Below, piece after piece: positions 3,912 to 59,564 of a stretch of DNA of 64,000 nt (positions are counted from its first letter, which is position 1; the number at the start of each line of letters is the position of its first letter). Origin of the DNA: Candidatus Falkowbacteria bacterium. Its GTDB lineage: Bacteria > Patescibacteriota > Patescibacteriia > Patescibacteriales > UBA12465. The stretch is taken from contig JBAXJX010000002.1 in assembly GCA_037137655.1 (NCBI GenBank), positions 229,730 through 293,729 of the forward strand, read 5' to 3'. The notes below the pieces were generated by a model, which had not been told where the DNA came from, searched no databases, and saw only the letters and a list, made by a program, of their open reading frames with translations. The position numbers and the translations under genes were made by a program.

Positions 3912-4033
3912 TGTTTTCTCGTTTTTCCGAAATCGATTTCGAAAAAAATGGTTTGTTCTAAGTTGGAACAAATCATTGCCTTGAATATAAAAAGCTTTGT
4001 GTTCAGAGCGATGATTAAAATCAAAATAATATT

Positions 4034-38667: not shown

Positions 38668-39807
38668 TTATTTGTGGCAACAGTAATAACCCGAGCCACA
38701 ACTAAGATCAGTTGCTTGCTGTCCTATTCCCACTATAGCACCACCAATACCAGTAACAACTGCACCAACACCGGTAACAGCTCCAGCGGCAGCGCCAACA
38801 GCTGTGCCTTTAGCCACGGCACTAGTTCCATCCCAAGAATATCCCGTTGGGCAATTATAAACACTTCCCGGATTATTCATACAAGTGCCTCCCTGGGTAC
38901 CGCATTTTCCTCCCGGGCCTGGTGTTTTTGCACAACAATGAATATCATTACCGCAATCACTGCCGCCAGTTATCCATTGCTCGGTTTCATCACAGGTGCG
39001 TTTGCATGTCCCCCAATTAGAATAACCACACACTTCACCTTCTAATTTGGCATTGGAATCATGATAATAACAATATTGCCCACTTGGACAGTTTTCGTTT
39101 AGATCACTTGTCCAGCCAATTGGTTTTGGGTTTTCCACAAAACAATAACCGCCACTTGCACCACAAGGTTGACCTTTAGTTATGGGTTGATAACCGCTGC
39201 CAGTGTCGATACATAATTGATTGTCGTTTAATTGGGCTAAACCTATTGCTTCACAACTAACAGGTTTTTTAGTGGCTCTATCAATTTTTTGTCCTTGATC
39301 ATTGGTCGTGACCGCAAATGTTTGAATTGTTTTTCCACAACAGGTTATGGTTTCGATATGCTCGACGGATTGGATTTTTGTTGGCTTAATATTTACCAAT
39401 GAAGTATTGACCGTGCCAAGAATTGTATAAGCGCCGAGCACTAAAAATAAACCAATAATACTTGAGGTGATAAAACCTTTGGCTTCTTCAATCTTGGAGC
39501 TATTACCCTGAGAAGTAATCCAAATAATTCCGCCCAGCATTAACATAATGGCCGCAACAATTCCAACAATCGCAATTGCATAACCATAATAAGCTTTAAT
39601 GTAGTTGATGATTGGGGCGGTTGATGATTCTAGTGGTACTCCGACAGTGGCCGTAAATTGTGATCCTGGGATTGTGACAATGGGTGTGAAAATGACAGCT
39701 GGTTTATCGGCTGCTTGTGCACTGGGAACAATAATAAAAAATGATCCGATAAAAAAAGACAGAGCAATCAGGCAAAATAATTTTGGCACAATAGTTTTAT
39801 GGCGCAT
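38668..39807 (-). CDS. Fusion protein: pilin-family two-TM module + 20-Cys C-terminal domain ending in a glycine zipper
   Basis: 379 aa. Signal peptide ending AQA/A; module MLGGIIWITSQGNSSKIEEAKGFITSSIIGLFLVL. A domain with 20 Cys (hand count) follows, then GTAVGAAAGAVTGVGAVVTGIGGAIVGIG (GxxxG repeats) and a terminal SCGSGYYCCHK. Confidence 0.7.
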   Translation of the reverse strand: MRHKTIVPKLFCLIALSFFIGSFFIIVPSAQAADKPAVIFTPIVTIPGSQFTATVGVPLESSTAPIINYIKAYYGYAIAIVGIVAAIMLMLGGIIWITSQGNSSKIEEAKGFITSSIIGLFLVLGAYTILGTVNTSLVNIKPTKIQSVEHIETITCCGKTIQTFAVTTNDQGQKIDRATKKPVSCEAIGLAQLNDNQLCIDTGSGYQPITKGQPCGASGGYCFVENPKPIGWTSDLNENCPSGQYCYYHDSNAKLEGEVCGYSNWGTCKRTCDETEQWITGGSDCGNDIHCCAKTPGPGGKCGTQGGTCMNNPGSVYNCPTGYSWDGTSAVAKGTAVGAAAGAVTGVGAVVTGIGGAIVGIGQQATDLSCGSGYYCCHK

Positions 39808-43178: not shown

Positions 43179-43955
43179 ATGAAAATAATTTCTTGGAATA
43201 TTAATGGTTTGCGTGCAGTGGTTAAAAAAGGCGATTTAGTCGCTTTTTTAGCTAAGGCCAATCCCGATATTTTATGCTTACAAGAAATAAAAATATCGGA
43301 AGCTAAAGTGGAAAAAGAAAATTTGCAATTCCCGGGCTATTATTTATTAACCAATGGCGCACAGCGCGAAGGTTATAGCGGCACAGCCATGTTGGTGCGT
43401 GAAAGTTTATTTACTAAAATGCCTAAAGCAGAAAATGGGATTGGTGTCCCGGAATTTGATGATGAAGGTCGAATTCAAATTTTAGAATTACCGAAGGCTT
43501 ATGTTGTGAATGTTTATTTCCCGAATGCCAATGCTGAACTTTCGCGTTTAAATTATAAATTGAACTTCAATAAGGCCTTACTTAAACATTTAAAAAAGTT
43601 AGAAACGAAAAAACCGATTATTATCACTGGTGATTTTAATGTCGCTCATCAAACAATTGATTTAGCGCGGCCAAAAGAAAATGACGGTAGTGCCGGTTTT
43701 ACAAGGGAAGAGCGCGAATCGATGGATGAATTTTTAGCGGCTGGTTTTATTGATACTTTCCGTTATTTAAATGATGGACTAATCCAATATTCGTGGTGGA
43801 GTTATCGCATGGGCGCTCGCCAACGGAACGTGGGGTGGCGGATTGACTATTTCTGCGTATCCGATAAGATTAAGAAAAGCCTAGAAAAAGCTTATATTTT
43901 AGATCAAGTTTTAGGTTCTGATCATGCCCCAGTGGGGATTGAAATTAAATTATAA
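43179..43955 (+). CDS. xth: Exodeoxyribonuclease III (AP endonuclease)
   Basis: 258 aa. SWNINGLRA, LCLQEIK, GDFNVAH and SDHAPV are ExoIII/APE family motifs. Confidence 0.9.
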   Translation: MKIISWNINGLRAVVKKGDLVAFLAKANPDILCLQEIKISEAKVEKENLQFPGYYLLTNGAQREGYSGTAMLVRESLFTKMPKAENGIGVPEFDDEGRIQILELPKAYVVNVYFPNANAELSRLNYKLNFNKALLKHLKKLETKKPIIITGDFNVAHQTIDLARPKENDGSAGFTREERESMDEFLAAGFIDTFRYLNDGLIQYSWWSYRMGARQRNVGWRIDYFCVSDKIKKSLEKAYILDQVLGSDHAPVGIEIKL

Positions 43956-43959
43956 TTAT

Positions 43960-46368
43960 ATGTACGACCACAAAATCATTGAAAAAAAATGGCAAAAAAT
44001 TTGGCAGGAAACCGAATTATATAAAACCAGTAATGACGCAACTAAACCGAAATATTATATTTTAGATATGTTTCCGTATCCATCCGGCGCCGGACTACAC
44101 GTTGGCCATCCGAAAGGTTATATTGCCACCGATATTTTGGCACGTTTGAAAATGATGCAGGGCTTTAATGTACTACATCCAATTGGTTGGGATGCTTTTG
44201 GGCTACCGGCCGAAAATTATGCTATTAAAACTAAAACTCATCCTCGAGTGGCGACGGAAAAAAATATTGCTGTATACAAAGAACAGTTAGAAATGTTGGG
44301 CTTTACTTATGATTGGAGTCGGGAAATTGATACGACTGATCCAGCTTATTACAAGTGGACACAATGGGCTTTTATTCAAATGTTTAAAAAAGGTTTGGTG
44401 TTTCAATCAAGTGAACCAATTAATTGGTGCCCTTCATGTAAAACTGGACTTTCCAATGAAGACGTGGAGGATGGTGCTTGTGAACGTTGTGGTACGCCAG
44501 TGGAGCAAAAGCCATTACCACAATGGGTGATTAAAATTACTGATTATGCTCAAAGATTATTGGATGACTTGGAAAAATTACCGCATTGGGAGGATTCGAT
44601 TAAGGACATGCAACGCAATTGGATTGGTCGCAGCGAAGGCGCCGAAATCGATTTTAAAATTAAAGATAGTGATGTTACAATTCGTGTTTTTACTACTCGT
44701 GTGGATACGATTTTTGGTTGTACTTATGTCGTTTTAGCCCCAGAAAATAGCCTAATTGAAGAGTTAAAAGCTAAGATTGTTAATTTAGCGGCAGTTAATG
44801 AATATTGTGAATCAGTTAAAAATAAAACCACTTTAGAACGCACCGATTTAAATAAAGATAAAAGTGGTGTCTTACTTCAAGGGTTAAAAGCGATTAATCC
44901 GTTTAACGGGGAAGAGGCGGATATTTTTGCGGCGGATTATGTTTTAAATTCTTATGGTACTGGTGCTGTGATGGCGGTACCCGCTCATGATGAGCGTGAT
45001 TTTGCTTTTGCTGAAAAATATAATATTCATGTTAAAACTTCCATTCGTCCGGAAAACGATGGCTTAGCTTTGGGTTGTTTTACGGAAGACGGCGTGCTAG
45101 TTAATTCCGGTGAATTTACCGGTTTGAAATCAGACGTGGCGCGGCAAAATATGATTACCTGGTTAGAAAAAAATAATTACGGTAGTCGTAAAATAAATTT
45201 TAAAATTAAAGATTGGGTTTTTTCTCGTCAACGTTATTGGGGTGAGCCAATTCCACTTATTCATTGTGAGAAATGTGGTGTGGTGGCGGTTCCGGAAGAT
45301 CAATTGCCAGTTACTTTACCGGATGTGGAAAGTTATGAACCAACCGGAAACGGAGAATCACCACTCGCTGGTATTGCTGATTGGGTGAATACCACTTGTC
45401 CAAATTGTGGTGGCGCTGGTCGCCGCGAAACTAATACGATGCCGCAATGGGCTGGTTCATCGTGGTATTATTTACGTTACATTGATCCGAAAAATGATAG
45501 CGCTTTAGTTGATAAGGATTTGGAAAAATATTGGTCACCGGTGGATTTTTATGTGGGCGGCGCGGAACATGCGACCCGTCATTTAATCTACGCCCGTTTT
45601 TGGCATAAATTTTTATTTGATATCGGTGTAGTTTCTCACGATGAACCGTTTACACGATTACAACACGTTGGTTTGATTATGGGAGAAGATGGTCAAAAAA
45701 TGTCCAAACGCTGGGGAAATGTGATTAATCCGAATGATATTGTGGAGCAATTTGGCGCTGACGCTTTGCGCATTTACGAAATGTTTATGGGGCCATTTTC
45801 CCAAGCTGCAGCTTGGAATAGTGGTGGACTTTCCGGTACTCGTAAATTTTTAGATCGCATTGATGCTATTACCTTTTCTGATCGCGTTGATGGTCGCGCT
45901 TTGAATGGTAGTTTTCATAAAACGATTAAAAAAGTCGGTGAAGATATTGCGGATTTTAAATTTAATACGGCAATTTCCTCTTTGATGATTTTGATTAATG
46001 AAATTTACGGTCCAGATAATAAAGGTGACATTAGTAAAACAAATTATATTCTATTATTACAATTGCTTGCACCATTTACACCACACTTAGTGGAGGAATT
46101 ATGGGCGCGCGCCGGGGAAGCTAATAGTGTCTTTAAATCCACTTGGCCAACTTATAGTCAGGAATTATTGCGTGATGATAACATTTCTTTGGCCGTGCAA
46201 ATTAACGGTAAATTGCGCACAACAATTGACTTGCCAACCGATACCCCGGAAGATGTAGCTAAATCGGCCGTCTTGGCGAATGAAATTATTCAAAAATGGT
46301 TGGAAGACAAAGAGATTGTAAAAATAATTTTCGTCCCGAACAAATTAATGAATATTGTGATTAAATAA
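43960..46368 (+). CDS. leuS: Leucyl-tRNA synthetase
   Basis: HVGHP (HIGH) and KMSKRWGN (KMSKS), plus a CP1 editing domain. I start at ATG 43960 (MYDHKIIEKKWQKIW), 4 nt after the xth stop, not at the track start of 43924, which overlaps xth. Confidence 0.95.
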   Translation: MYDHKIIEKKWQKIWQETELYKTSNDATKPKYYILDMFPYPSGAGLHVGHPKGYIATDILARLKMMQGFNVLHPIGWDAFGLPAENYAIKTKTHPRVATEKNIAVYKEQLEMLGFTYDWSREIDTTDPAYYKWTQWAFIQMFKKGLVFQSSEPINWCPSCKTGLSNEDVEDGACERCGTPVEQKPLPQWVIKITDYAQRLLDDLEKLPHWEDSIKDMQRNWIGRSEGAEIDFKIKDSDVTIRVFTTRVDTIFGCTYVVLAPENSLIEELKAKIVNLAAVNEYCESVKNKTTLERTDLNKDKSGVLLQGLKAINPFNGEEADIFAADYVLNSYGTGAVMAVPAHDERDFAFAEKYNIHVKTSIRPENDGLALGCFTEDGVLVNSGEFTGLKSDVARQNMITWLEKNNYGSRKINFKIKDWVFSRQRYWGEPIPLIHCEKCGVVAVPEDQLPVTLPDVESYEPTGNGESPLAGIADWVNTTCPNCGGAGRRETNTMPQWAGSSWYYLRYIDPKNDSALVDKDLEKYWSPVDFYVGGAEHATRHLIYARFWHKFLFDIGVVSHDEPFTRLQHVGLIMGEDGQKMSKRWGNVINPNDIVEQFGADALRIYEMFMGPFSQAAAWNSGGLSGTRKFLDRIDAITFSDRVDGRALNGSFHKTIKKVGEDIADFKFNTAISSLMILINEIYGPDNKGDISKTNYILLLQLLAPFTPHLVEELWARAGEANSVFKSTWPTYSQELLRDDNISLAVQINGKLRTTIDLPTDTPEDVAKSAVLANEIIQKWLEDKEIVKIIFVPNKLMNIVIK

Positions 46369-46383
46369 AATAATTTAACTAAA

Positions 46384-46412
46384 TTGACAAAATTTTCATA
46401 GTGTGGTATAGT
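46384..46412 (+). promoter_or_regulatory. Candidate promoter of lipoprotein gene 46450-47151
   Basis: TTGACA (46384-46389), a 17-nt spacer ending in TGG, then TATAGT (46407-46412). Confidence 0.5.
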
Positions 46413-46449
46413 ATTAGTATATTTAAAAACTAACTTTCTAACAAAAACT

Positions 46450-47151
46450 ATGAAAAAGTTATTTATTTTGACTTTGATTTTTCCAGTTTTGTTTTTAGCG
46501 GGCTGTGCGAGTAAAGTAGCGGATAATAATGCACCTATTAATAATAATATTGAGCAAGTCCCAGTTGTTAGTGAAAATACTCCGGTAGCTACCACTTCTC
46601 AAGTGGCAGCACCAATCGTTGTGTCTTCAACTTCAGAGAATGTCGCAACAACTAATAATGTAATTCCTAAAGACTGGAGTCTCATTAAAAATGATAAGTA
46701 TTATTTTGAGTTTTATGCCCCATCCGATTCTTCTAGTACCGAAATATTATTTGGTCAAAAACAAGTGATACCGCAATGGCAAAATGGGGTTTCCGTAAAA
46801 AAGGAAGTTGTTTCTAATTATTATAGTTTAGAAAAAAGAGCAGACTCAGGATTAAATGCCTTTTACTCTTTTAAAGTAATTGTTTATCCTAATACAAATA
46901 AAATCTTGAAAGATATCAGCAGCTGTAAGGCGGGAGATTCAGAGATTAGTTGTGAAAAGGTTAAAATTAACGGCACTGTAGATGCTTACAAAATTACTTA
47001 TAATTCAACCCAGGCCGTTCCAGGATCAGATTTCCATTTTATCTATAAGGGAAGTTACTATGTAATTCAACATTCTATTAAGCCACAGTATAAGTCAAAT
47101 GTTTCTAATGTTGGAGCAGATGTTTTTAAAACATTTAAATTGTTAGAATAA
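46450..47151 (+). CDS. Hypothetical lipoprotein
   Basis: 233 aa. Lipobox FLAG/C. I recognise no family. Confidence 0.6.
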   Translation: MKKLFILTLIFPVLFLAGCASKVADNNAPINNNIEQVPVVSENTPVATTSQVAAPIVVSSTSENVATTNNVIPKDWSLIKNDKYYFEFYAPSDSSSTEILFGQKQVIPQWQNGVSVKKEVVSNYYSLEKRADSGLNAFYSFKVIVYPNTNKILKDISSCKAGDSEISCEKVKINGTVDAYKITYNSTQAVPGSDFHFIYKGSYYVIQHSIKPQYKSNVSNVGADVFKTFKLLE

Positions 47152-47172
47152 AATAAATATTTAAGTATATTT

Positions 47173-47200
47173 AAAAAGAGCCTCATTTTGAGGCTCTTTT
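47173..47200 (+). terminator. Intrinsic terminator after 46450-47151
   Basis: Stem gagcctc / gaggctc (47178-47184 / 47190-47196) followed by a T-run. Confidence 0.7.
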
Positions 47201-47227
47201 GTTGTTATGTTGACAAAAATGTTATAT

Positions 47228-47259
47228 GAAAAAAGGACAACGTATTTTGTTGTCCTTTT
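47228..47259 (-). terminator. Intrinsic terminator of minus-strand gene 47275-48018
   Basis: Stem ggacaac / gttgtcc (47235-47241 / 47249-47255). On the minus strand it is followed by a T-run (complement of the a-run at 47229-47234). Confidence 0.7.
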
Positions 47260-47274
47260 GAAGTTTTGTTTGAT

Positions 47275-48018
47275 TTATCGTTTATCATCAACTATTAGTA
47301 ATCCGTTGGCATAAGAGAATTGGTTATTGCCTTCATCGGTAATAGTTAGAGTAGCAACTCCGGTATGATAACTTGTGGGTGATATCATATTTACTCCGAT
47401 TGTCCATCTCTCTGGTCCTTGTCCTAAATTTAAAGTGTCGATAGCAATGTTTGGATTACCGGCACTATCATTTTTAAATGTATAATTTCTAGTATAGAGT
47501 TTATTGGTTCCGTAGAAATAAATTTTAGCTGTGTTTGTTCCTGAATTTAAAGCTAAAATAAAATTTTTATTTGGAAATAACCATAAACCGTTATATATTC
47601 CTTCTTTGCCCGTAGTTAAGGTAAAAGTTCCATAATCATTGTATCCTATTGGAACTTTGTTGGCTAAAATATAATCGTTATATTTTTGGCCATCACTAAT
47701 GTTAACTTGCAAAGTTGAATTACTTAATAAATCAAACTTTAAAGCTTCTAGGCTGTTAGCGTTTGGGTTATTAAATTTTCCATCTTTAAAATAATAGACA
47801 AGAGGAGAACCATGATAGTTAGTACCGCTTCCAGAAAAATAAAATAAATCATTTTCTTGAGCTTCGAATCCTGCTTTTGGTTGTTGGCGTTGTTTGTATT
47901 CTTTGTATTTTTTATTTTGATTGTTGTTGGGTGTCAATTCCTCATCTTTCTTGCAAGATGTAAAAACTGTTAAAATAGCTATTATAGCTAAACCGATTAA
48001 TTTTACTGCTTTTGTCAT
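47275..48018 (-). CDS. Hypothetical lipoprotein (beta-rich)
   Basis: 247 aa. Lipobox-like VFTS/C followed by KKDEE; consensus-like promoter upstream. I recognise no family. Confidence 0.6.
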   Translation of the reverse strand: MTKAVKLIGLAIIAILTVFTSCKKDEELTPNNNQNKKYKEYKQRQQPKAGFEAQENDLFYFSGSGTNYHGSPLVYYFKDGKFNNPNANSLEALKFDLLSNSTLQVNISDGQKYNDYILANKVPIGYNDYGTFTLTTGKEGIYNGLWLFPNKNFILALNSGTNTAKIYFYGTNKLYTRNYTFKNDSAGNPNIAIDTLNLGQGPERWTIGVNMISPTSYHTGVATLTITDEGNNQFSYANGLLIVDDKR

Positions 48019-48068
48019 GGTTATATAGTTTTAAATTGTGAATGAGCTGAACTATTTTTGATAAGATA

Positions 48069-48097
48069 ATTATATCACGTTTTTAGCAAAAAGTCAA
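48069..48097 (-). promoter_or_regulatory. Near-consensus promoter (TTGACT-17-TATAAT) for gene 47275-48018
   Basis: On the minus strand: TTGACT (complement of 48092-48097), a 17-nt spacer, TATAAT (complement of 48069-48074). It shares the 19-nt core with 7351-7369. Confidence 0.65.
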
Positions 48098-48133
48098 TAT
48101 ATTGTAAAATAAGCTAGCAAAATCAGCATTTTT

Positions 48134-48489
48134 AGCCTCTTATGAAATACCGCACCTGAAGCGGGCGAAGCTTTCTTGGAAAGGTTGAGCAAGCGCGAAA
48201 TCTTTTCAAAAAGATTTGCACGCTTCACCCCACACGGTTAACGGCATTCTACCGGAGACTATAAAGAGCGAATATCATGATTAATTAAAATAACCGTCTT
48301 TTTAGTCTTCGGTATCTCGGCTTGAATCATCTAATGCTTATAATTTCGCTTCGTCTTGAGACTCAGCTATCTTCAACGCTTTTATAGTCTGGGGCGAATC
48401 TGGCAAAATTTTTAAAAAAGATCTCACTAGCGTTCGAACTTTTTTAAAAGTTTCGACCAGCTTCGGATACGGTGGGCTCGGTGAGGGCT
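48134..48489 (+). ncRNA. Candidate large structured non-coding RNA, class unassigned
   Basis: A 585-nt gap has no ORF of 60 aa or more on any frame and looks more GC-rich than neighbouring spacers. Long-range complementarity: 48134-48156 with 48471-48489, and 48256-48270 with 48377-48390 (14 bp with 1 bulge). Local hairpins sit at 48192-48224 and 48435-48455. A strong hairpin at 48500-48530 and then the rsmA promoter follow. Confidence 0.45.
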
Positions 48490-48499
48490 TCCAAATATA

Positions 48500-48536
48500 A
48501 ATTGGAGGTCACAAATTGTGACTTCCAATTTGTCGG
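48500..48536 (+). terminator. 14-bp hairpin, probable terminator of the upstream RNA
   Basis: aattggaggtcaca / tgtgacttccaatt (48500-48513 / 48517-48530). The single non-Watson-Crick pair is G.U on the plus strand but C.A on the minus strand, favouring plus-strand function. The downstream tract is T-rich but interrupted. Confidence 0.5.
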
Positions 48537-48537
48537 T

Positions 48538-48566
48538 TTGATATTTTAATTATAAATGAGTATAAT
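48538..48566 (+). promoter_or_regulatory. Candidate rsmA promoter
   Basis: TTGATA (48538-48543), a 17-nt spacer, TATAAT (48561-48566). Confidence 0.55.
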
Positions 48567-48603
48567 CATGGCATAATATATATAAATTTTTTCTAATAAT
48601 AAA

Positions 48604-49446
48604 ATGAATAATTTACTTTCCCGCACACTCGAGCTTTGTAAAATGTATGAGATTTATCCGTCCCGGTCTAAAGGGCAGAACTTTTTGATAAACGAAAAGG
48701 TTTATGACGATATTATTGTGGCGGCTGATTTAAAGAAGACCGACATTGTTTTGGAGGTTGGCCCAGGCTTGGGATTTTTAACGGAAAAGTTGGCGGCTAA
48801 TTGTAAAAAATTAGTGGCCGTAGAACTAGATGATAAGATTTTTAATTATTTGCAGATTAAAAAAATCAGTCAAAAATTGGACAATGTAGAATTATTAAAT
48901 AGCGATATTTTACAAGTTAGAGTTAAGGAAGTGTTACCGGTCAAATATAAAGTGGTGGCCAATTTGCCTTACAATATTACTTCAATATTTTTAAGAACAT
49001 TTTTGGAAAGTGATTTTCGCCCCCAATTATTGGTCTTAATGTTGCAAAAAGAAGTGGCGGAACGCATTACCGCTAAAGCTGGAGAGATGAGCTTGCTTGC
49101 TTTATCGATTCAATATTTTGCGAGTGCTGAAATTATTGAAATTGTTCCGGCCTCTGATTTCTATCCAGCCCCGAAAGTGGACAGTGCTATTGTAAAAATT
49201 GATACGAGTGATTCATCCAAAATTGATTTTGCGGAGGCGAAATTATTTTTCCGTCTGGCGCGCATCGGGTTTAGTGCTAAACGTAAAATGCTCAAAAAAA
49301 ATCTTGGTAACGGTGTGAAAATACCGGCCGAAACTATTGAACAAGTACTCGTTGATTTGGGATTAGATGTTAAAATTCGTGCTCAAGATTTATCCCTCTC
49401 TGATTGGAAAAACTTATTTGCCAAGTTACGCAATTTCATGCTATAA
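48604..49446 (+). CDS. rsmA: 16S rRNA (adenine1518/1519-N6)-dimethyltransferase
   Basis: 280 aa. KGQNFL, VLEVGPGLGFLT (SAM binding) and ANLPYNITS are KsgA/RsmA motifs. Confidence 0.9.
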   Translation: MNNLLSRTLELCKMYEIYPSRSKGQNFLINEKVYDDIIVAADLKKTDIVLEVGPGLGFLTEKLAANCKKLVAVELDDKIFNYLQIKKISQKLDNVELLNSDILQVRVKEVLPVKYKVVANLPYNITSIFLRTFLESDFRPQLLVLMLQKEVAERITAKAGEMSLLALSIQYFASAEIIEIVPASDFYPAPKVDSAIVKIDTSDSSKIDFAEAKLFFRLARIGFSAKRKMLKKNLGNGVKIPAETIEQVLVDLGLDVKIRAQDLSLSDWKNLFAKLRNFML

Positions 49447-49458
49447 TTTAAACAAATT

Positions 49459-50304
49459 ATGGAGGAAAATAACGGTGTAAAAAAAGCTCAACCGTTTACC
49501 ACGCGACAAAGAAAAATTGTCGCTTATTTTAGTATTTTTAGTTTGGCGGTAATAATTTTTATGTTCATGCAAATTCGTTACAGTATTCGCTCGCCCTTTA
49601 TGGCGCCTAAAAATTATTCCAGCTATTTAGCTAAACAAAATCAACCAAGTACATCTTCCGCTAGTATTGATATGACCAATGTTGATTGTCGTGCTGCGGC
49701 CATCTCTTCACCAGATAATTTAGTTCTACGTAATCGTGATACTGATGGCGATGGTTTGTCGGATTATGATGAACTTTGTGTTTATAATACTTCACCATAT
49801 TTAGCCGACTCTGATAGTGATGGTTTTTCTGATAAAGAAGAGGTTGTAAATAATACTGATCCAAATTGTCCAGCTGGCCAAACTTGTGCCACTATTTTAG
49901 ATGCTAGCAAGAATACTTTTTCGAGCTCATCCTCAGTTACGGCTATGACTCCGGAGGAATTAGCAGCAATTCAAACCTTGTCCGGTTCAGCTAGTGATGC
50001 GACAGCGGTTAGAAAAGTGTTATTGGCTAATGGTATGGATAAAACCACTTTAGATGCGATGAGTGACGCAGAATTATTAGCTGCAATCAGTAATAGTACA
50101 AGCACTGCGCCAACAAACACGGTGAAAACACCAAGCATTGGTGGTACCGGAACAAGTACTGTGTCACAAAGCGTGTTATCAGGTACGGCTGACACTAGTG
50201 TTTTACGTAAAATGTTAATAGACAATGGTGTTAATAAAGCGGCGGTAGACGCATTAAGTGATGATGATTTGCGTGCTGCTTATGAAAAGACTTTGAATCA
50301 ATAA
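49459..50304 (+). CDS. N-terminally anchored protein with TSP3-like Ca-binding repeats and a duplicated helical module
   Basis: 281 aa with a TM helix. DTDGDGLSDYDE and DSDSDGFSDKEE repeats. Two copies of a roughly 30-aa module (ATAVRKVLLANGMDKTTLDAMSDAELLAAI and TSVLRKMLIDNGVNKAAVDALSDDDLRAAY). It lies 34 nt upstream of the giant gene. Confidence 0.6.
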   Translation: MEENNGVKKAQPFTTRQRKIVAYFSIFSLAVIIFMFMQIRYSIRSPFMAPKNYSSYLAKQNQPSTSSASIDMTNVDCRAAAISSPDNLVLRNRDTDGDGLSDYDELCVYNTSPYLADSDSDGFSDKEEVVNNTDPNCPAGQTCATILDASKNTFSSSSSVTAMTPEELAAIQTLSGSASDATAVRKVLLANGMDKTTLDAMSDAELLAAISNSTSTAPTNTVKTPSIGGTGTSTVSQSVLSGTADTSVLRKMLIDNGVNKAAVDALSDDDLRAAYEKTLNQ

Positions 50305-50338: not shown

Positions 50339-53300
50339 ATGAAGAAAAAATTATCCGGCGTTTTACTTCTCGTTTTGATTGCATTTGGTTTTTTAATGCC
50401 AAACATTTCTCATGCTACTCCAGCTGATACGATCGGTGGTCCAGTTGCAATTATTAGAAAAGTGACTGATGTTGTTCAAAGTAAATTTAAAGACACTTTG
50501 CAAAAAGTTGGTTCAGCTCTTTTGAAGGGCGCAATTTCTAAAGCTTTAAATAAAATTGCGATTGATGCGGCGACTTATGCTGGTTCTGGCGGTGAAGGCC
50601 AAAAACCTCTCTTTGTAACTAAGGGCTTAGGTGCTTACATGAAAGATATTGGTGATAATGCGATTGGTGATGCCATGGAACAATTCGCTCAAGGCACTGG
50701 TATTAATATTTGTTCGCCTAATTTGGATTTTAAATTGAAAATTGGTTTAGGTTTATCAGCTCTAACAGAACAAAAACGTCCAAGTGACTCAGCTTGTAAA
50801 TTTTCTACCATGTCTCAAAACTGGAAGAATGATATCAATGCTAAATGGGCCGCTTTTCAAAGTCCGGATCTTCTTAAGAATGTTGCCGGATCTTTTAGTT
50901 TAAGTGCTCCAGCTGGTATCAACGCTTCTTATAGCGTGTTGTCTGGTGCGGCTGATACTTCTAAAACAAAAGTTAATGATGCTACTAATGGTCAATTGAT
51001 TGGTAAAGGCTGGCTTACTCCGACTAATATTGGTGGTCAAGTAACAACTGCGCCTGGACAAGCCGAAGCTGATTTAGCCAACATTAAACAAACTCAACAA
51101 GCTTCATTGTTACAAACTACTGGCAACGTCTTTGTTGATGCTGGTAAGGTTTTTGTTAACCAATTAGCGGTCACAGCTTTTAATCGAGCTTTGAAAAAAT
51201 TAGCTACTGGTGATGTTGGAAATATTATTCCTGGCGTAACTGTCGGTAGTGACGATTGGTGGCATAAACAAATCATGGCTGTTACTACTTGTGATCGCAC
51301 CCCACTTGATGGTTGTAATGCTAGTTCTAAAAACGATCAAGACCAAAGTAAATGTTATGCTGGCTACTCTTGTAATTCTGATTGTAAATGTGTGGACGAC
51401 AATGCTGCTGTTGCTAGCACTGATAATCTTTATAATCCAAATGCCGTTAATAATACTGGCGGCATCAAGGCTATTACTCAAAGCTTACAAACTTTTGCTA
51501 AACCAAAATTCAATGTTCAAGCCGATCTTAATGTTTTAGCAAGTTTAAACTCTTGTCCTGATGCTGGCCCTTACGGCGTTGGTCCAACTGATTGTGTGCT
51601 TGATGATAAATTCATGCAAGCCGTGCAAGAAAAGAAAACTGTGGCTGAAGCAATTTCCGAGGGAACTTTAGATCCAACTTGGAAAATGACAGCGGATGAT
51701 AATAAAACTTATCAAGACGCTTATACAATGCGTGATATTAAAATCTTAGGCCAATATCGTATTTTACCAGTTGGTTGGCAACAAATAATTGCTACTTCGA
51801 CAATTAACAAAAATCCAAATATAACTTTGGGCGATGCCATGGCTTGTTTTGATCCTAATGATGCTTATACTAATTTTAGTCCTAATTTTAATTCTGATGG
51901 TAATGGTGATATTTGGTGCCAAGGATTAGTTGATCCTAATTGGGTTTTGAAAGCACCACAAACACAATGTGCTAAACTTGGTGTGGGTAATCAACTTTTA
52001 AGTAAGGATGTTACAACTGAAGGAGTTTTGATAACTCGTAATGATAATTATTGCGCCGATGTTCAAAGTTGTATTTCAGAAAACAAAGATGGTTCTTGCA
52101 ATAAATTTGGTTATTGTACTCAAGAAAAGCGAACTTGGAATTTTGCTTCTGATGCTTGTGACCCAGTTTACAATACTTGTAATACTTATGTAGGTTCTGA
52201 TGGTACTCAAGCTTCTTATTTGGCCAATACTTTAGATTATTCTAATTGTACTGGTAACCAAGCTGGTTGTAAGTCTTATGCGACGACTGGTATTTATAGT
52301 TCTTCCTCCAATACTATGAATTGGGGAACTGATAATTTAAAATATTTTAACAAAACTGTTGGTATTTGTGATGCTGGCAACGAAGGTTGTTCTGGTTTTA
52401 TCCGCACCAATAATTACCATAATTTTTTAGTGAACGGTGATTTTGAAGATAATTCTAATTTAGCTTTTTGGGGAGTTGGTTCTGGTGGAATTTCTATTAC
52501 CACTTCCGGTTACGCCTCAGCTCAAGCCATTGCCTTCTCAACTAACGGTTTAGGTCGAACGATAGCGGTTGGTCCAGCTGATTATAATGTTGCCGATGAA
52601 GCTTATACTTTGTCTTTCTACTCTAATTGTACTGCAACAACTACAGCTTATTTGGGCACAGCTAATAATATGGCCATGAAGTCTCTTCCTTTTTCTTCGG
52701 GAAATACTTGGTCTTATCATTATTTAACTAATGTTTATCCGCATGACGCTGGTACAAACCAAATATCATTTTCGATTATACCAGAATCAGGTTCTTGTGT
52801 AGTTGATAAAATTAAATTGGAAAAAGGTTTGGACTCTTCGGCTTATTCTGAATATGGTACTAACGATACAATTTATGAAAAAATCTTACCTAAATATTTA
52901 GAATCAGTTTGTTATGTAAATACTGGTAGTGCTAAAAATTATAATTTGCAACCATTTGCTCCGGCGATTTGTCAAAAATTTGCAAAAAAATGTAATGCCG
53001 ATGAGGCTGGTTGTGAACAATACAAAGCTGCTGGCGATGCTTTGCCAGTGCAAGCTGTCGCTAAAGCGGCTGATTATTGTACCGCAGAATGTGTTGGTTA
53101 CGATACTTATATTCAACGCGAAACAGCTTTTAATTCTTCTACGGCCGCTAATATCATTCCAAAAACAGCGAGCGCTTGTAGTGCGGCCGCCGTTGGTTGT
53201 AATGAATTCACTAATTTAGATGCTGTTGCTAAAGGCGGTGAAGGCAAAGAGTATTACACTTATTTGCGTCAATGTGTAAAACCAAGCGAAACTAAATGTG

Positions 53301-56300
53301 GTGATTTCTACACTTGGGAAAATTCTGGTGGTCAACAATCATTTAAAACTTATAACTTAGAACTTGGGGCGGTTGTGGCGGATGGTCCAATGACATCGGG
53401 CGCCACAGCTTATGCTTTTGCGGGTAATAAAGGTGGTTCGGATTGTTCGTCTAGTACCTATAAATTATTGCCATCTGATCCAAACTATAATTCTGATTGT
53501 CGTGAATTCTATGACAAGGCTGGTAATATTTCGTATGCCAATTTAGGTCAAACTATAACTTGTAATGATAATTGTTTGCCTTACCGGGTGACTGATAATA
53601 TTGGTGGTGACAAATGTACTTCAATTGGTGGTACGGCGGATACTAGTGCGTCCAGCTCTTGTATCGTTTATGCTGTTCCAGGTGAAGGCCGCACTTGTAG
53701 CGCTGCGGAAAATGGTTGCCGAGAATATAATGGTAACTATGGTAACAATATTAAAATTGTTAAATCATTTGATTTTGAAAATGGGGTTAATCCGTTTACT
53801 TTTGATACTCAACAGAGTTCTGCTAGTGTTGTGCCTGAATCAAATATTCGCGATGGTCATTCTCTTAAAATTGTTAACGAGGGAAGTATTGGTTATCAAA
53901 CAAGTCAGTGGCAAAAATTGACCTTTAATTTAAATCTAGCCGATAAAACAATTGCTTTCTTTAAAGATGTTTTAAATAAATTGAGTTTAGCAGCCTTCGC
54001 CGCCTCAACCGTTCCAGATCATGGCGTGGCCGTTGATATGACCGGCTCAGCCGTTCAAGGTGCGGCTTACACTATTAAATTTTTAGCTAAAGCTTCATAT
54101 AATTCTTCGATTAATATTGATTTTACCAACGGTAAAAACGCCGCTCAATTCTTATCAACTGCGCAAGAAGGAGCTTCGGCTTATATCCCGGGTGATAATA
54201 CTTGGAGATTGTATCAGATGTATTTACCAAGCCTTGATCATGATGTTTCTAAAGTCGAGGGATTGGTTCTCTCTACTGGAGTAAAAGATGTTTACATTGA
54301 CAATATCGTTCTAACCCAAATTACTGATCGTTATTATTTGCTTAAAGATTCTTGGAAGACTCCTGATTCTTGTTACTATGATATTTTTGGTAAATATCAA
54401 GGTACAAATTATAACTTGGGTTGTAACGCTTATGCCGATCGTGATAACAGTACTCATTATTTACGTAATTTCTCCAAGATTTGTGGCGCTACTTCGGTTG
54501 GTTGTGAGGCAGTAGTTGATACTGGTAATAGCAGCGCAGCCACAACAACCCCAAATTATATTTATGCGATTTATGATTCCACTAAACTTTGTGGTGCGGA
54601 CAATAAAGGTTGCAGTCGTTTAGGCCAAGCTTTGTTGGCAAATCGCGATGTGTCAATTCAAAATGTTTATAGTGATGTTTATGTTAAAGATAATCCAGAT
54701 AATTACACTACTCCGACTAAGGCTGGCATTACTTGTTCGTCTGATGCTGTTGGTTGTGAAGAATTTAAGAGCACAGATGGTTCTTTGAATTACTTTAAAA
54801 ACCCAGGTTCAAATACTTGTGAATGGCGCGCCGGTAAAGGTGATCCAAGTAATAAATGGTATCGCAGCGCTTCGATGCGATGTGATTATAATACATCAAC
54901 TAAACCGGGTATTGATGCCGTCGGCGGTGCAGTAACTGAGCAATATAACCGTTTATGTTTGCGGGATACAGATTGTACTGTTGGTGCGACTAAAGGAAAA
55001 TGTATCGTGGATACTAATGATTATTTATGTCCAGTGGAAATGGCTAAAACTTTAGGTTTTGGTGGTACTGCAATTTATCAACCAAGTGGCGCGACTGGTA
55101 TTTGTAAATCGGATGCGGATACTTGTACTGAATTAATCGATCCTCAAAGTGGTTTTATGCCAAATTTAGTTTTGGATCCAAGTGGTTATAGCGGTACGTA
55201 TAAGAGTGATAAATGGAGTGTTAGCACGGCTGTTAAACCAATTCTTGGTAACCTTCAATTCCTTGAGGGACAAAATATAAATCCGTTGTTAGCTCCAAAT
55301 AAACTATATAAGATTTCAGTTGAAGGAGTTGCTCCTCCGACATCAGCCTTAAATGGTGATGTGGTTTTGTATTGTAATGCTAATGTTAAAATTTTGCGTT
55401 CGGATAATAGTTTAACTGACTTTAATCCAGCGACCGACCCTAACTATCAAGGAAATATAAGGGTAAGTGTTGATCAAAATAGCGTTAATAATTCTATTAC
55501 TTTCTATACTGGAACAGGTGACTCTAATGTAAAAAGTTTTTCTTGTGCGGTGTATAATCCAGATAAAGGTAAAATAATTTCTCTAAAAGAAGTCGCGATT
55601 GATTATCAATTGGCTAAAGATTTAGATCGCCAATCTTGTAATGGTACTCCAAATACTGATTCTGGTTGTGTCTTGTTTAACGAAAGAGGTGTAGCGGCTA
55701 GCAGCACGGCGCCATTCGGTCAAAAATTAGCGACCTTGGGTTATAACGCTGGCAAGTCTTATGATTATTCTCGTATCTATAGTACTTGTGGTGGTGTTGG
55801 CCAAGTACCTTGTAACAGTAATTCATTGATCAAAGCCACACCGGATCGTTCTTGTGCAAAATGGTTGGCGTGTGATGATTACGCTTTAGATGGTAATAAC
55901 CAAGTTTGTAGTCATTACGCTGAATGTACGGCCGCAGATGATAGTGGTCAATGTAATACCTTCTTGCAAACATCACCTAATACGGCCCATGTCTTTTCTT
56001 CCACAAATGATCAAAATTCTTCTGGTTTTTCGTTGTTGAATAATTTCTACTTCAAGGATATGAAGCAGGTGGGAAGTGATATTTTTCATCAAGACTTTGA
56101 AAAAGCTTGTGTGAGCGGTGAACAATTTTGTACTGGTCATATAATAAGTTCTCCTGATGATTTAACAACCTTAAAAAAGAATTCACGCGCAGATTATCCG
56201 GGCCATGGTAAGAGTTTTATGGCGGCGGACAACGTTGCTGCTATTGCCGGATTTGATGTAGCTCCAAATACGGATTATTACATTAATTTTTTGGTTAATG

Positions 56301-58576
56301 GTGATGATTTGATTGGTCGTGGTCTTGATTTGGCAGTTAATGACTCAAAAAAGACTGATGCGGGTGGATGCAGTAATCTGGACTGTGTTTATCCTGGTGG
56401 TGCAAGTAGCAATTGGGGTCACCCAGTTATTTATCGTAGTGGTGGATCGGCATTGAATGTTTTGTCTGACGGTAAAAAAATTATTGATGGTAGTGGTTGG
56501 CAAAGAATGGTGGCGAAGATTCATGTTCCAACAGGTACAACTAAAATTAATTTACAATTTTACACTTCTGAATCCGGTTATTATGTATATATTGATGATA
56601 TTAATATTGAATCAGTGTTGCAGGTAGCTGACAACACTTTAATCGCCAAGGATTGTCGCTTGTATCCTAAGACCGACAGCTTAACTTGCGAAAGTGATAA
56701 TAAGAGTGTGGTAGCTAATGGTCTTTATGGTTATTGTTTGCAATACGATTCAAAAAATCCAAGTGTTTGCTTGATGTGGTACCCAGTTGGTGGCGACGGT
56801 AGCAGTGTTGATAATTATAGTGCTAATAATATGTTTACTGGTTTTACTAGTACTGGTTTAACGCCGCACTGGTGTATGAATGTTGCGGTTAACGCTACAC
56901 CAGTGGAACACAGGGAAATGAGAGTGTTGTCTTATTTAGGTTATTGTACTGCTGATACTGCTAATCATCCGACTGAGGCCGCAAAATGCAATCAACAGCT
57001 CGACTCTCAGGGTAATGGCGTTAGGGATTATTTTGGACGCTCCTTAGTTTATCCAGCCTTAAATTCTGTACCAGCGACAAAAGATAGTAGGGCTATATTC
57101 CCCGGCTATGTCGAAGGGAATGCTGATTATGATTATTTTACGGTTTCGTATGAAGCGCCGGGAACTCATGATATTTGGCAAGCACTGATTCAAGTGCCGA
57201 AAAACAGCAATTCATACACTTTTTACGACTTAATCGGCGGTTGGGGTATGCCAACCACCCCAACTTGTGAAGCTAATACGGATAATACATGTGTCCCAAA
57301 AGGCTCCACTGTAATTAATGGCGGTTGGTGGGCTAAAGGTAGTAGTTATACTCAGTCCGGTAATAGTAATTATCAAATTGTTAGTGCTGACCCTATCGCT
57401 CCGGGTAGCGCAAATGAGAATTGTATTTCTCTTGATTTTGTCTCCGCTGGTAATTGCGGTGGCGGTAGGGATTGTACAAACGTTTCAGCAAGTAAGCCTG
57501 TTGGCGGTGCCGTAGACCCAAGTAAAATTTCTATTTGCGTTAATACGTTGGTAAATGGTTGGTATAAATCTGATTTACCTACCGCTCTCGCTGGTTTTGC
57601 TAAATTTCATGTTAGTGATTATTTCAATGGCACTTACCAGGACTTTTTTACTCCTGCCGGTGGTGATTATGATGGTTATAAAATTATTTATCTTGATCAG
57701 GGAGAAAAAACCAATAGTAGTCCTGCCGGGCAGCCAAGTTTGTGGAATGGAACTATGGTAAGAAATAATTTTTCCGACGAGCCCTTAACTTGTAATACTT
57801 ATACCACGCCGCCGCCAGGAGACTATGATCCATTAATTACTTGGTATGACCGTGCAAAAGACACTAAGACTAACTGGAGTGCATTAACAGGTAGTGCTTA
57901 TGTTGGATATTACACTGCTGATACTAATAATGCCCCATTTAGTGCTGTTAGCACTAAAGTAGCTAATTGTTATTTAAAGTCTGGTACTTGTGGTTTACCG
58001 TATGGTTGTAGCGGAACTGGTTGTCGATATTTATCTGCTACTGGTGGGGTGTTAAGCTTAAATAGCTCAATCCAGGATACGATTTTTAACACTAATAATA
58101 CTGACGGATATGCTCGTTTTAAACCTATTATTAAAAATTTGTTTTTAAATGCGGGTGTTGATGATTACACAATTACTGATGGTAACTTGCCAAATCCAAT
58201 CAATAGTACTAATCCTGAACATATCGGCAAGTGCCCCACTGGTAGTCCTTGGTGCGCTACTTGGCCGACCGTTGATGGTCCAGTGCTAATGGACAAAAAA
58301 GGTGCTTTAGTTGGCGGCGCTATGAGTCCGGGGTATTATACTTTAAAATTTGGCGTCACCGTTAATTCAAACCAATTGCCTTTATATAAAATGCGTATCG
58401 ATTGGGGTGATGGTAGTAACGTTGAAAAAACAGTGATTGATCCTCGAAATGGTGCTGCGCCTTTTGTTTTTGTTCATTATTACTCCGCCGCGCCAACAAC
58501 CGATATTAAAATTACCGTTATGGATAATTGGAGATCATACGGCACCGCAACCAGGATTAATGGACTTTGGAAGTAA
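50339..58576 (+). CDS. Giant secreted Cys-rich surface protein (2745 aa) with jelly-roll/CBM-like modules and a C-terminal PKD-like domain
   Basis: Uninterrupted 8.2-kb ORF. Signal peptide ending SHA/T. Recurrent G-C-x-x-[FY] knots (GCSGF, GCKSY, GCEQY, GCNEF, GCREY, GCEEF). NGDFE...VDKIKLE, FDFENG...YIDNIVL and ...YVYIDDINIE modules. C-terminal IDWGDGS PKD-like motif. Confidence 0.8.
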   Translation: MKKKLSGVLLLVLIAFGFLMPNISHATPADTIGGPVAIIRKVTDVVQSKFKDTLQKVGSALLKGAISKALNKIAIDAATYAGSGGEGQKPLFVTKGLGAYMKDIGDNAIGDAMEQFAQGTGINICSPNLDFKLKIGLGLSALTEQKRPSDSACKFSTMSQNWKNDINAKWAAFQSPDLLKNVAGSFSLSAPAGINASYSVLSGAADTSKTKVNDATNGQLIGKGWLTPTNIGGQVTTAPGQAEADLANIKQTQQASLLQTTGNVFVDAGKVFVNQLAVTAFNRALKKLATGDVGNIIPGVTVGSDDWWHKQIMAVTTCDRTPLDGCNASSKNDQDQSKCYAGYSCNSDCKCVDDNAAVASTDNLYNPNAVNNTGGIKAITQSLQTFAKPKFNVQADLNVLASLNSCPDAGPYGVGPTDCVLDDKFMQAVQEKKTVAEAISEGTLDPTWKMTADDNKTYQDAYTMRDIKILGQYRILPVGWQQIIATSTINKNPNITLGDAMACFDPNDAYTNFSPNFNSDGNGDIWCQGLVDPNWVLKAPQTQCAKLGVGNQLLSKDVTTEGVLITRNDNYCADVQSCISENKDGSCNKFGYCTQEKRTWNFASDACDPVYNTCNTYVGSDGTQASYLANTLDYSNCTGNQAGCKSYATTGIYSSSSNTMNWGTDNLKYFNKTVGICDAGNEGCSGFIRTNNYHNFLVNGDFEDNSNLAFWGVGSGGISITTSGYASAQAIAFSTNGLGRTIAVGPADYNVADEAYTLSFYSNCTATTTAYLGTANNMAMKSLPFSSGNTWSYHYLTNVYPHDAGTNQISFSIIPESGSCVVDKIKLEKGLDSSAYSEYGTNDTIYEKILPKYLESVCYVNTGSAKNYNLQPFAPAICQKFAKKCNADEAGCEQYKAAGDALPVQAVAKAADYCTAECVGYDTYIQRETAFNSSTAANIIPKTASACSAAAVGCNEFTNLDAVAKGGEGKEYYTYLRQCVKPSETKCGDFYTWENSGGQQSFKTYNLELGAVVADGPMTSGATAYAFAGNKGGSDCSSSTYKLLPSDPNYNSDCREFYDKAGNISYANLGQTITCNDNCLPYRVTDNIGGDKCTSIGGTADTSASSSCIVYAVPGEGRTCSAAENGCREYNGNYGNNIKIVKSFDFENGVNPFTFDTQQSSASVVPESNIRDGHSLKIVNEGSIGYQTSQWQKLTFNLNLADKTIAFFKDVLNKLSLAAFAASTVPDHGVAVDMTGSAVQGAAYTIKFLAKASYNSSINIDFTNGKNAAQFLSTAQEGASAYIPGDNTWRLYQMYLPSLDHDVSKVEGLVLSTGVKDVYIDNIVLTQITDRYYLLKDSWKTPDSCYYDIFGKYQGTNYNLGCNAYADRDNSTHYLRNFSKICGATSVGCEAVVDTGNSSAATTTPNYIYAIYDSTKLCGADNKGCSRLGQALLANRDVSIQNVYSDVYVKDNPDNYTTPTKAGITCSSDAVGCEEFKSTDGSLNYFKNPGSNTCEWRAGKGDPSNKWYRSASMRCDYNTSTKPGIDAVGGAVTEQYNRLCLRDTDCTVGATKGKCIVDTNDYLCPVEMAKTLGFGGTAIYQPSGATGICKSDADTCTELIDPQSGFMPNLVLDPSGYSGTYKSDKWSVSTAVKPILGNLQFLEGQNINPLLAPNKLYKISVEGVAPPTSALNGDVVLYCNANVKILRSDNSLTDFNPATDPNYQGNIRVSVDQNSVNNSITFYTGTGDSNVKSFSCAVYNPDKGKIISLKEVAIDYQLAKDLDRQSCNGTPNTDSGCVLFNERGVAASSTAPFGQKLATLGYNAGKSYDYSRIYSTCGGVGQVPCNSNSLIKATPDRSCAKWLACDDYALDGNNQVCSHYAECTAADDSGQCNTFLQTSPNTAHVFSSTNDQNSSGFSLLNNFYFKDMKQVGSDIFHQDFEKACVSGEQFCTGHIISSPDDLTTLKKNSRADYPGHGKSFMAADNVAAIAGFDVAPNTDYYINFLVNGDDLIGRGLDLAVNDSKKTDAGGCSNLDCVYPGGASSNWGHPVIYRSGGSALNVLSDGKKIIDGSGWQRMVAKIHVPTGTTKINLQFYTSESGYYVYIDDINIESVLQVADNTLIAKDCRLYPKTDSLTCESDNKSVVANGLYGYCLQYDSKNPSVCLMWYPVGGDGSSVDNYSANNMFTGFTSTGLTPHWCMNVAVNATPVEHREMRVLSYLGYCTADTANHPTEAAKCNQQLDSQGNGVRDYFGRSLVYPALNSVPATKDSRAIFPGYVEGNADYDYFTVSYEAPGTHDIWQALIQVPKNSNSYTFYDLIGGWGMPTTPTCEANTDNTCVPKGSTVINGGWWAKGSSYTQSGNSNYQIVSADPIAPGSANENCISLDFVSAGNCGGGRDCTNVSASKPVGGAVDPSKISICVNTLVNGWYKSDLPTALAGFAKFHVSDYFNGTYQDFFTPAGGDYDGYKIIYLDQGEKTNSSPAGQPSLWNGTMVRNNFSDEPLTCNTYTTPPPGDYDPLITWYDRAKDTKTNWSALTGSAYVGYYTADTNNAPFSAVSTKVANCYLKSGTCGLPYGCSGTGCRYLSATGGVLSLNSSIQDTIFNTNNTDGYARFKPIIKNLFLNAGVDDYTITDGNLPNPINSTNPEHIGKCPTGSPWCATWPTVDGPVLMDKKGALVGGAMSPGYYTLKFGVTVNSNQLPLYKMRIDWGDGSNVEKTVIDPRNGAAPFVFVHYYSAAPTTDIKITVMDNWRSYGTATRINGLWK

Positions 58577-59396: not shown

Positions 59397-59475
59397 GGTG
59401 TCAGCTCCTCCTGCGGGCTTTGTTTTATATGTTAGTAGATTTTATTTTTAAAGACCAGTACATTAATTGCTTATA

Positions 59476-59504
59476 ATTATAGCATGCGGCGGGGAATTTG
59501 TCAA
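59476..59504 (-). promoter_or_regulatory. Perfect consensus promoter (TTGACA-17-TATAAT) for gene 58662-59396
   Basis: On the minus strand: TTGACA (complement of 59499-59504), a 17-nt spacer, TATAAT (complement of 59476-59481). Confidence 0.7.
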
Positions 59505-59521
59505 TGTCACCTCACCCTTAA

Positions 59522-59553
59522 TCCCTCTCCATCCATAAATGGACGGAGAAGGA
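59522..59553 (-). terminator. GC-rich hairpin after the antitoxin gene (terminator/insulator-like; no clean U-tract)
   Basis: On the minus strand: ttctccgtcc...ggatggagaggg, about 13 bp including G.U pairs that are only valid on the minus strand. It lies between the TA operon end and the next promoter. Confidence 0.4.
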
Positions 59554-59564
59554 GAGTAATTTTA

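Follow-up and report, generated by a model that had tools for sequence, protein, structure and literature searches.

Several families of intergenic repeats in bacteria, among them the ERIC, RUP and Correia elements and the Rickettsia palindromic elements, are palindromic or foldback in nature, resemble MITEs, and measure a few hundred bp or less. The element described here comes from the ~965 kb genome of a member of Candidatus Falkowbacteria (CPR/Patescibacteria) and was studied within a window of 64 kb, that is, the whole stretch of DNA that was analysed. Like these repeats, the element is non-coding, intergenic, lineage-specific and fast-evolving, and its long terminal inverted repeats fold the whole unit on either strand. 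In contrast to them, each of its arms is itself a hairpin kept by compensatory changes, and its size, 355 bp, exceeds that of most of them. Of the features by which MITEs and foldback elements are recognised, the terminal inverted repeats are present, if imperfect, while a single copy was seen in place of many and no target-site duplication was recognised.

The structured RNAs of bacteria offer a second comparison. RNase P RNA, tmRNA and the rods of the 6S/Ms1 type share with the element a length of 350–400 nt, paired ends, a multi-domain or rod-like organization, and GC enrichment within an AT-rich genome; however, none of them gave a covariance match at E ≤ 10, the position of the element is not conserved, and these RNAs do not have the global palindromic symmetry that it displays. 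A third comparison may be drawn with the hairpin-rich single-strand origins, such as the sso of rolling-circle plasmids and the f1 intergenic region. By analogy, the element may be likened to these origins as a non-coding block of several hundred nt made up of tandem imperfect hairpins, linked to mobile DNA, and conserved in structure but not in sequence. Unlike them, it has no replication gene nearby, and no homology to them was found.

A non-coding gap in a lineage-specific insertion

The element lies in the gap from 48019 to 48603 between a lipoprotein gene on the minus strand (47275–48018) and rsmA (PF00398), which is the longest internal non-coding gap within the window. The initial annotation had described this gap as devoid of ORFs of 60 aa or more and as richer in GC than other spacers, and both observations hold. 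When the ORF scan was extended to those of at least 20 aa, all were 44 aa or shorter, most began with GTG or TTG, and none was convincing. The two longest, of 44 and 33 aa, lie on the minus strand, have neither an ATG nor a Shine-Dalgarno sequence, and are not called as genes in any assembly checked. A hydrophobic, toxin-like core is also absent from the gap ORFs, none of which contains a transmembrane-like stretch. Scored by codon usage, almost all frames throughout the gap come out negative, as against +0.2 to +0.5 for the flanking genes. The GC content of the core is 0.39–0.405 as opposed to 0.21–0.30 in most other spacers, with one further spacer (59397–59564) reaching 0.39.

The gap belongs to a lineage-specific insertion of 2.2 kb (46369–48603) that separates leuS (43924–46368) from rsmA (48604–49446) and contains two orphan lipoprotein genes in addition to the non-coding element. 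In 19 of 30 relatives with RsmA proteins that are 44–58% identical, an ORF of ~800 aa ends 3–48 nt before rsmA. In the related loci L086 and L087 (78%), this ~800-aa ORF is leuS according to the gene tables and is separated from rsmA by 4 nt; in L088 (74%), the sequence places leuS directly before rsmA in the same manner. Because most relatives join leuS to rsmA directly, 46369–48603 is an insertion into a conserved synteny block whose order is POR, DsbA, YkuD, EEP and LeuS, followed by RsmA, a TSP3 protein and a giant protein. The last two, a TSP3-repeat protein (49459–50304) and a protein of ~2700 aa with no Pfam domains (50339–58576), also follow rsmA in the 74–78% relatives L085–L088. Elsewhere in the window, the genes for subunits of pyruvate:ferredoxin oxidoreductase have among them one (38668–39807, minus strand) whose 379-aa product contains a type IV secretion pilin domain (PF18895, E 1.5e-7).

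The two lipoprotein genes, 46450–47151 on the plus strand and 47275–48018 on the minus strand, are convergent and encode lipoboxes but no Pfam domain. No homologue of the 247-aa product of the second gene was found among 5.8 billion proteins. The spacer between the two genes (47152–47274) holds two back-to-back terminator-like hairpins; together with the spacer at 3912–4033, it is short and folds very strongly (z = −5.9 and −5.3, respectively).

A relative at 78%, L085, has an intact, divergent ORF6N gene (E 3e-22) directly upstream of the same rsmA promoter. The promoter and 5′ UTR of rsmA (48536–48603) are nearly identical to positions 251–325 of the L085 locus, while the RsmA proteins are only 78% identical. 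Since the lineages in which leuS abuts rsmA have no room for such a promoter, it seems to have arrived with the insertion. Transposase, integrase, Rep and invertase genes were not found among the neighbouring genes scanned. No target-site duplication or direct repeat was seen by eye at the ends of the element, which, like the lack of a transposase or integrase, counts against an origin in mobile DNA. In two independent Logan runs, the contigs break off at 48085 and pick up again at 48461, thereby bracketing the element, and within the first lipoprotein gene an ENA assembly and a Logan contig both break, at points 25 nt apart (46562 and 46587). These breaks may represent strain-level structural polymorphism or poor coverage of hairpin DNA.

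Palindromic symmetry and folding

The folding of the region is exceptional on both strands. Positions 48130–48489 have a folding z of −6.6 on the plus strand and −5.4 on the minus strand, making them the strongest outlier in the window (89 tiles; mean −0.58, standard deviation 1.17, minimum −3.05 outside the locus), and the slightly longer stretch 48125–48540 has values of −6.7 and −7.9. The helices paired by hand in the initial annotation are located as it described. The closing helix joins agcctc (48134–48139) and accgcacc (48149–48156) to gagggct (48483–48489) and ggtgggctcggt (48471–48482), with a pair probability of 0.91–0.95 for the outer part, and the long-range partners agactataaagagcg (48256–48270) and cgcttttatagtct (48377–48390) are likewise present.

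These helices are parts of a larger symmetry. The left arm of a large imperfect palindrome (48134–48248) pairs with the right arm (48374–48488) in a single register (i+j = 96622) with zero gaps. Of the 115 positions, 64 form Watson-Crick pairs (56%) and 12 more are G:T, for a total of 66%. A background of 20000 samples gave 30.4 ± 5.0 pairs with a maximum of 51, so that the observed 64 correspond to a z of ~6.7. The mismatches are evenly balanced, with 12 of the G:T and 12 of the A:C type.

Each arm in turn contains a hairpin unit. The first, D1, spans 48157–48227 (full repeat unit 48145–48236) and was delineated from an inverted repeat (I4), the helices of the minimum free energy (MFE) structure, and a 25-pair consensus hairpin that it shares with the second unit. 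That second unit, D3, spans 48395–48465 (unit 48386–48477) and is an inverted copy of D1; the plus strand of D1 aligns with the minus strand of D3 over 92 nt at 60% identity and with no gaps. The central segment between the arms (48249–48373) has a strong hairpin of its own (inverted repeat I7), in which 48250–48267 pair with 48297–48314 through 12+5 bp at probabilities of 0.87–0.98; for 48256–48270, the long-range partner at 48377–48390 is an alternative. The element is thus composed of a hairpin unit of ~92 nt that was duplicated in inverted orientation around a core of ~125–150 nt.

The MFE structure of the minus strand is a rod in which the left half pairs with the right half. On the plus strand, the local hairpins D1 and D3 compete with the long-range rod, each with a probability of ~0.5. 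Without the 3′ hairpin that follows the right arm, the MFE energies are −114.5 for the plus strand and −112.6 for the minus strand, a difference of ~2 kcal/mol; with it, they are −139.9 and −130.3, and the plus strand is more stable by 9.6 kcal/mol. The MFE structure of the plus strand contains 7 internal G.U pairs and one A.C 1x1 mismatch, whereas that of the minus strand contains 6 G.U pairs and four A.C mismatches. The extreme scores on both strands arise from the inverted DNA symmetry of D1 and D3 around the core, and since G:T and A:C are equal in the arms and the energies of the two strands are nearly so, the plus strand is not singled out. A predicted competition between rod and hairpins at even probability is not what would be expected of an optimised RNA fold. 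Gapless symmetry, the 12:12 balance, near-equal energies and fold competition are signatures of an inverted DNA duplication and not of an RNA optimised on one strand. From this analysis, the initial annotation was correct in that the region is non-coding, exceptionally foldable and outside Rfam, while the independent plus-strand RNA unit that it proposed is not established: the region has the form of a nested palindrome at the level of DNA, the two strands fold to almost the same degree, and the wobble pairs have no net strand bias.

The hairpin may nevertheless be more than a by-product of the duplication. When D1 and D3 were compared over the 25-pair hairpin, 15 pairs were unchanged, 4 were changed on one side, 6 were changed in a compensatory manner, and none was broken. 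Equal retention was seen in 5 of 500 shuffles, and controls slid along the sequence gave 0–1 compensatory pairs. D1 has its G.U pairs on the plus strand, whereas in D3 they belong to the minus strand. Because D1 and D3 keep every pair despite 40% divergence, the hairpin itself would appear to be maintained; as a comparison of two paralogous sequences within one element, in opposite orientations, the result is no more than suggestive. Conversion between the arms could give the appearance of selection on these pairs. Taken at face value, the retention of 25 of 25 pairs with 6 compensatory changes points to a possible function over neutral decay and in this respect counts against a relic.

Searches for related sequences placed the element outside known RNA families. 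Rfam returned no matches at gathering thresholds in the whole window, in agreement with the failure of the initial annotation to assign a class, and at E ≤ 10 the gap gave only hairpin matches of 14–21 bits to miRNA, leader and thermometer models. The Rfam classes left unmatched include RNase P RNA, tmRNA, SRP RNA, 6S RNA, riboswitches, ribozymes and the large ornate RNAs. ARAGORN reported neither a tRNA nor a tmRNA, and Rfam gave no match over twenty related rsmA loci. Candidate motifs for RNase P (P4/CR-I, CR-V) and tmRNA were rejected on inspection by eye, and a CRP-like site was rejected since its half-sites are in reverse order.

No similarity was found either when the gap was compared to 88 related loci with blastn and nhmmer. 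Phage records matched the 3′ hairpin only, and plasmid records gave no match. Exact k-mer scans of viral contigs and one metagenome returned only chance matches of 18–23 nt, and degenerate patterns of the positions invariant between D1 and D3 had 0 hits in viral contigs. A covariance model of the D1/D3 hairpin recovered only the two known copies from the window and 69 other loci (464 kb), and a 17-nt arm motif was not found outside the element. The element is therefore present as a single copy in the 64 kb examined of the ~965-kb genome, with no second one in 464 kb of other DNA, which counts against an origin in mobile DNA.

Transcription signals and the ORF6N palindrome

Two strong promoters flank the element, both directed outward and both with a score of 11/12. 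The promoter of the lipoprotein gene (48069–48097, minus strand; TTGACT-17-TATAAT with a TG) points away from the element. The rsmA promoter (48538–48566, plus strand; TTGATA-17-TATAAT), first noted in the initial annotation, is conserved together with the 5′ UTR in L085. A weak promoter-like site on the plus strand (48083–48110; TTAGCA-16-TAAAAT, 9/12) is the only candidate for an RNA starting near 48117. Since shuffled sequences give 2.7 ± 1.9 such sites per 800 nt, the site is not evidence on its own.

At the other end, a terminator consensus scan of 47900–48700 found none. A 14-bp hairpin had been proposed here in the initial annotation; it is present at 48499–48531 (stem P 0.97), with a single G.T that is a wobble on the plus strand only. 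Its tail, AAUUUGUCGGUUUG, is only moderately U-rich, and the hairpin is followed by UUUGUCGGUUUG 5 nt before the −35 of rsmA. Together, the hairpin and UUUGUCGGUUUG could act as a plus-strand terminator.

The hairpin has another identity, however. By tblastn and HMM matches on both strands, 48499–48531 carries a motif of the ORF6N domain (PF10543); the plus-strand translation is NWRSQIVTSN and the minus-strand translation NWKSQFVTSN. The hairpin is identical at 31 of 32 nt to the corresponding part of an intact ORF6N gene in the gut phage contig MT839845.1, including the same G.T, so that stem, wobble and encoded motif are all shared with the phage copy. Rather than a dedicated terminator, the 3′ hairpin is thus a copy of a palindrome of ORF6N genes, and its G.U already exists in an intact phage gene. 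This palindrome may be defined by 14-bp arms, a 3-nt loop, a core of TCACA-WWT-TGTGA, and an encoded N/x-L/W-K/R-S-Q-F/I-V, all of which are found in the window copy. The copy in the window has 13 of 14 Watson-Crick pairs plus the one G.T, within the range of 12–14 of 14 among 12 distinct ORF6N genes, and the ORF6N gene of L085 has a perfect 14-bp palindrome that encodes NLKSQFVISS. Copies are located at L085 11–39, L089 3215–3245, L092 2643–2673, L014 ~1922–1952 and L102 701–732.

The window copy differs from the rest in that it stands without a gene; the other cases, 12 of 12, lie inside an ORF6N frame. Two ORF6N profiles searched against six frames of the gap matched only profile positions 77–88, the 10-residue motif of the hairpin. 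The peptides flanking the hairpin scored no better than shuffles (221/2000 and 213/2000), and Pfam searches of the three minus-strand frames gave nothing meaningful. Because its flanks have no ORF6N match, 48499–48531 is an orphan fragment rather than a recognisable pseudogene. It lies beside the D1–core–D3 arrangement.

Within ORF6N genes, the palindrome is better preserved than the protein would require. Among the 12 genes, some of them from CPR bacteria and others from gut phages, the mean is 12.6 of 14 pairs as compared to 6.7 ± 0.5 when synonymous codons are randomised, and identical residues use identical codons in 75–83% of cases inside the motif versus 38–40% outside. Covariation was also observed: a change from L to W is offset by synonymous Ser codons, and a change from SS to LK tracks the opposite arm. 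These patterns point to a nucleic-acid-level element within ORF6N genes. ORF6N proteins have been described as regulators within the integrative modules of mobile elements (bioRxiv 10.64898/2026.05.20.726742). No description of the palindrome was found in the titles and abstracts of the ORF6N papers listed. In L092 (2429–2961) and L093 (3001–3533), the ORF6N frame is split into ORFs of 98 and 77 aa immediately after the hairpin, and in the protein P0125 the hairpin motif occurs twice in tandem (WKSQFMT ... LKSQIVTSS). Both cases suggest that the palindrome is especially prone to frameshift or rearrangement.

Competing explanations and their implications

Taken together, the element is perhaps best explained, if tentatively, as a nested palindromic module or a relic of DNA of the mobile-element type. 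Several lines of evidence were counted in favor of this reading. Within the element, they are the symmetry of the arms, the identity of D1 and D3, the 12:12 balance, the near-equal energies and the competition between folds. Around it, they are an insertion that is absent from most relatives, an orphan lipoprotein, the ORF6N gene of L085 and the ORF6N palindrome, which is otherwise known from genes of phages and integrative elements. The lack of a homologue in Rfam, in the 88 loci, in phage and plasmid records beyond the hairpin, and in viral contigs was also counted, as were the contig breaks at 48085 and 48461 in two runs. On this explanation, an element bearing ORF6N would have entered between leuS and rsmA, where one is still found in the sister lineage L085, and palindrome-prone rearrangements would then have removed the ORF6N gene and left its hairpin behind. 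The hairpin may have been maintained in single-stranded DNA or in any transcript, either by selection or by arm-to-arm conversion. Its present activity would most plausibly be in cis, as a hairpin-rich spacer or terminator between outward-facing promoters, and a trans-acting RNA of a known class is not the favored present role. Against a relic, DNA without a use would be expected to disappear from a small, compact genome, yet the long GC-enriched gap persists; moreover, the promoter-like site and the hairpin with its U-rich tail are placed as a plus-strand RNA gene needs them.

The main alternative, serious though less probable, is that the plus strand of the locus encodes an orphan, lineage-restricted structured RNA of ~400 nt, which might serve the inserted element by binding a protein or by regulation. 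Such an RNA would begin from the weak promoter at 48083–48110, be closed by the 5′–3′ helix, and contain D1, the core and D3, with an exapted ORF6N hairpin terminating it before the rsmA promoter. It would account for the GC enrichment within an AT-rich genome, the retention in a compact genome and the maintained hairpins, and it agrees with the extreme folding z that is unique in the window, the lack of a coding signal, and the closing helix at P 0.91–0.95. The 7 internal G.U pairs to one A.C in the plus-strand MFE structure, the advantage of 9.6 kcal/mol when the 3′ hairpin is included, the retention of all pairs in both paralogous hairpin domains with 6 compensatory changes, and the hairpin with UUUGUCGGUUUG 5 nt before the −35 of rsmA are also in its favor. 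However, the minus strand folds almost equally (z −5.4 to −7.9), D3 offsets the G.U pairs of D1 with its own on the minus strand, and the arm mismatches are 12 G:T to 12 A:C. The fold is also ambiguous, with P ~0.5 for D1 and D3; the promoter, at 9/12, is at chance level; the terminator scan was empty; and no homologue was found in any collection searched.

A further reading, in which the hairpins themselves are the functional entity, is unlikely. The element would then be a module that works through its hairpins, as RNA or as single-stranded DNA, and that belongs to an uncharacterised mobile element of CPR bacteria; it would have been built by the inverted duplication of a 92-nt domain. The ORF6N palindrome would act in cis as an autonomous element of a kind not described before, for instance in termination, as a junction for recombination or as a hairpin that binds protein; it was kept from CPR bacteria to gut phages by synonymous-site constraint and persists here without its gene.

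More improbable is a functional site at the level of DNA, either a single-strand origin of replication or packaging or a recombination site that acts as folded DNA, which would have been stranded when the genes of its element were lost. Compensatory conservation in two inverted copies, with wobbles each on their own ‘sense’ strand, would suit such a site, as would the association with a palindrome from a mobile-element gene and the contigs that break on both sides in two runs. The comparison is drawn mostly by analogy from general knowledge, and it is opposed by the absence of Rep, integrase and transposase from the neighbouring genes scanned; by eye, neither core sites of the attC type (RYYYAAC/GTTRRRY) nor inverted repeats at the contig break points were found.

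A decayed protein gene, derived from ORF6N or from some other gene within the insertion, with GC content and chance repeats mimicking structure, is very improbable. The hairpin does encode the ORF6N motif N-W-K/R-S-Q-F/I-V-T-S-N, an intact ORF6N gene occupies this site in L085, and the minus strand has weak ORF6N-like traces in KNFARFAPDY and a stop-free run of 56 codons. As the ORF6N profiles match the 10-residue motif only, the flanks are at the level of shuffles, the minus-strand frames have no meaningful Pfam match and codon usage scores negatively in almost all frames, this reading is largely refuted except for the 33-nt hairpin itself.

Equally remote is an inverton, that is, an invertible promoter switch, or a locus for a type I toxin–antitoxin system or small protein: the position directly upstream of a lipoprotein gene, the bounding inverted repeats, the bracketing assembly breaks and the long 5′–3′ pairing that is typical of type I toxin mRNAs would fit, but the arms are only ~60% complementary, no invertase or recombinase occurs among the neighbouring genes scanned, both flanking genes have strong promoters of their own outside the element, and no ORF reaches 45 aa, is plausibly hydrophobic or has a Shine-Dalgarno sequence. 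The inverton in particular was rejected on the lack of inverted repeats at the break points 48085 and 48461.

With a palindromic module or relic of mobile-type DNA as the preferred reading, the locus illustrates how DNA palindromes of mobile origin, rather than an RNA gene, can give rise to a very strong folding signal (z below −6), to an enrichment in GC and to plausible signals for promoter and terminator. The gapless register of the arms, the balance of G:T to A:C and folding on both strands are tests of symmetry that expose such an origin. If the element is transcribed, it would be a rare case of an orphan structured RNA from a CPR bacterium. The hairpin in the coding sequence of ORF6N genes, kept at synonymous sites across very distant hosts, may matter more than the element itself, and it could have a role in regulation or recombination.
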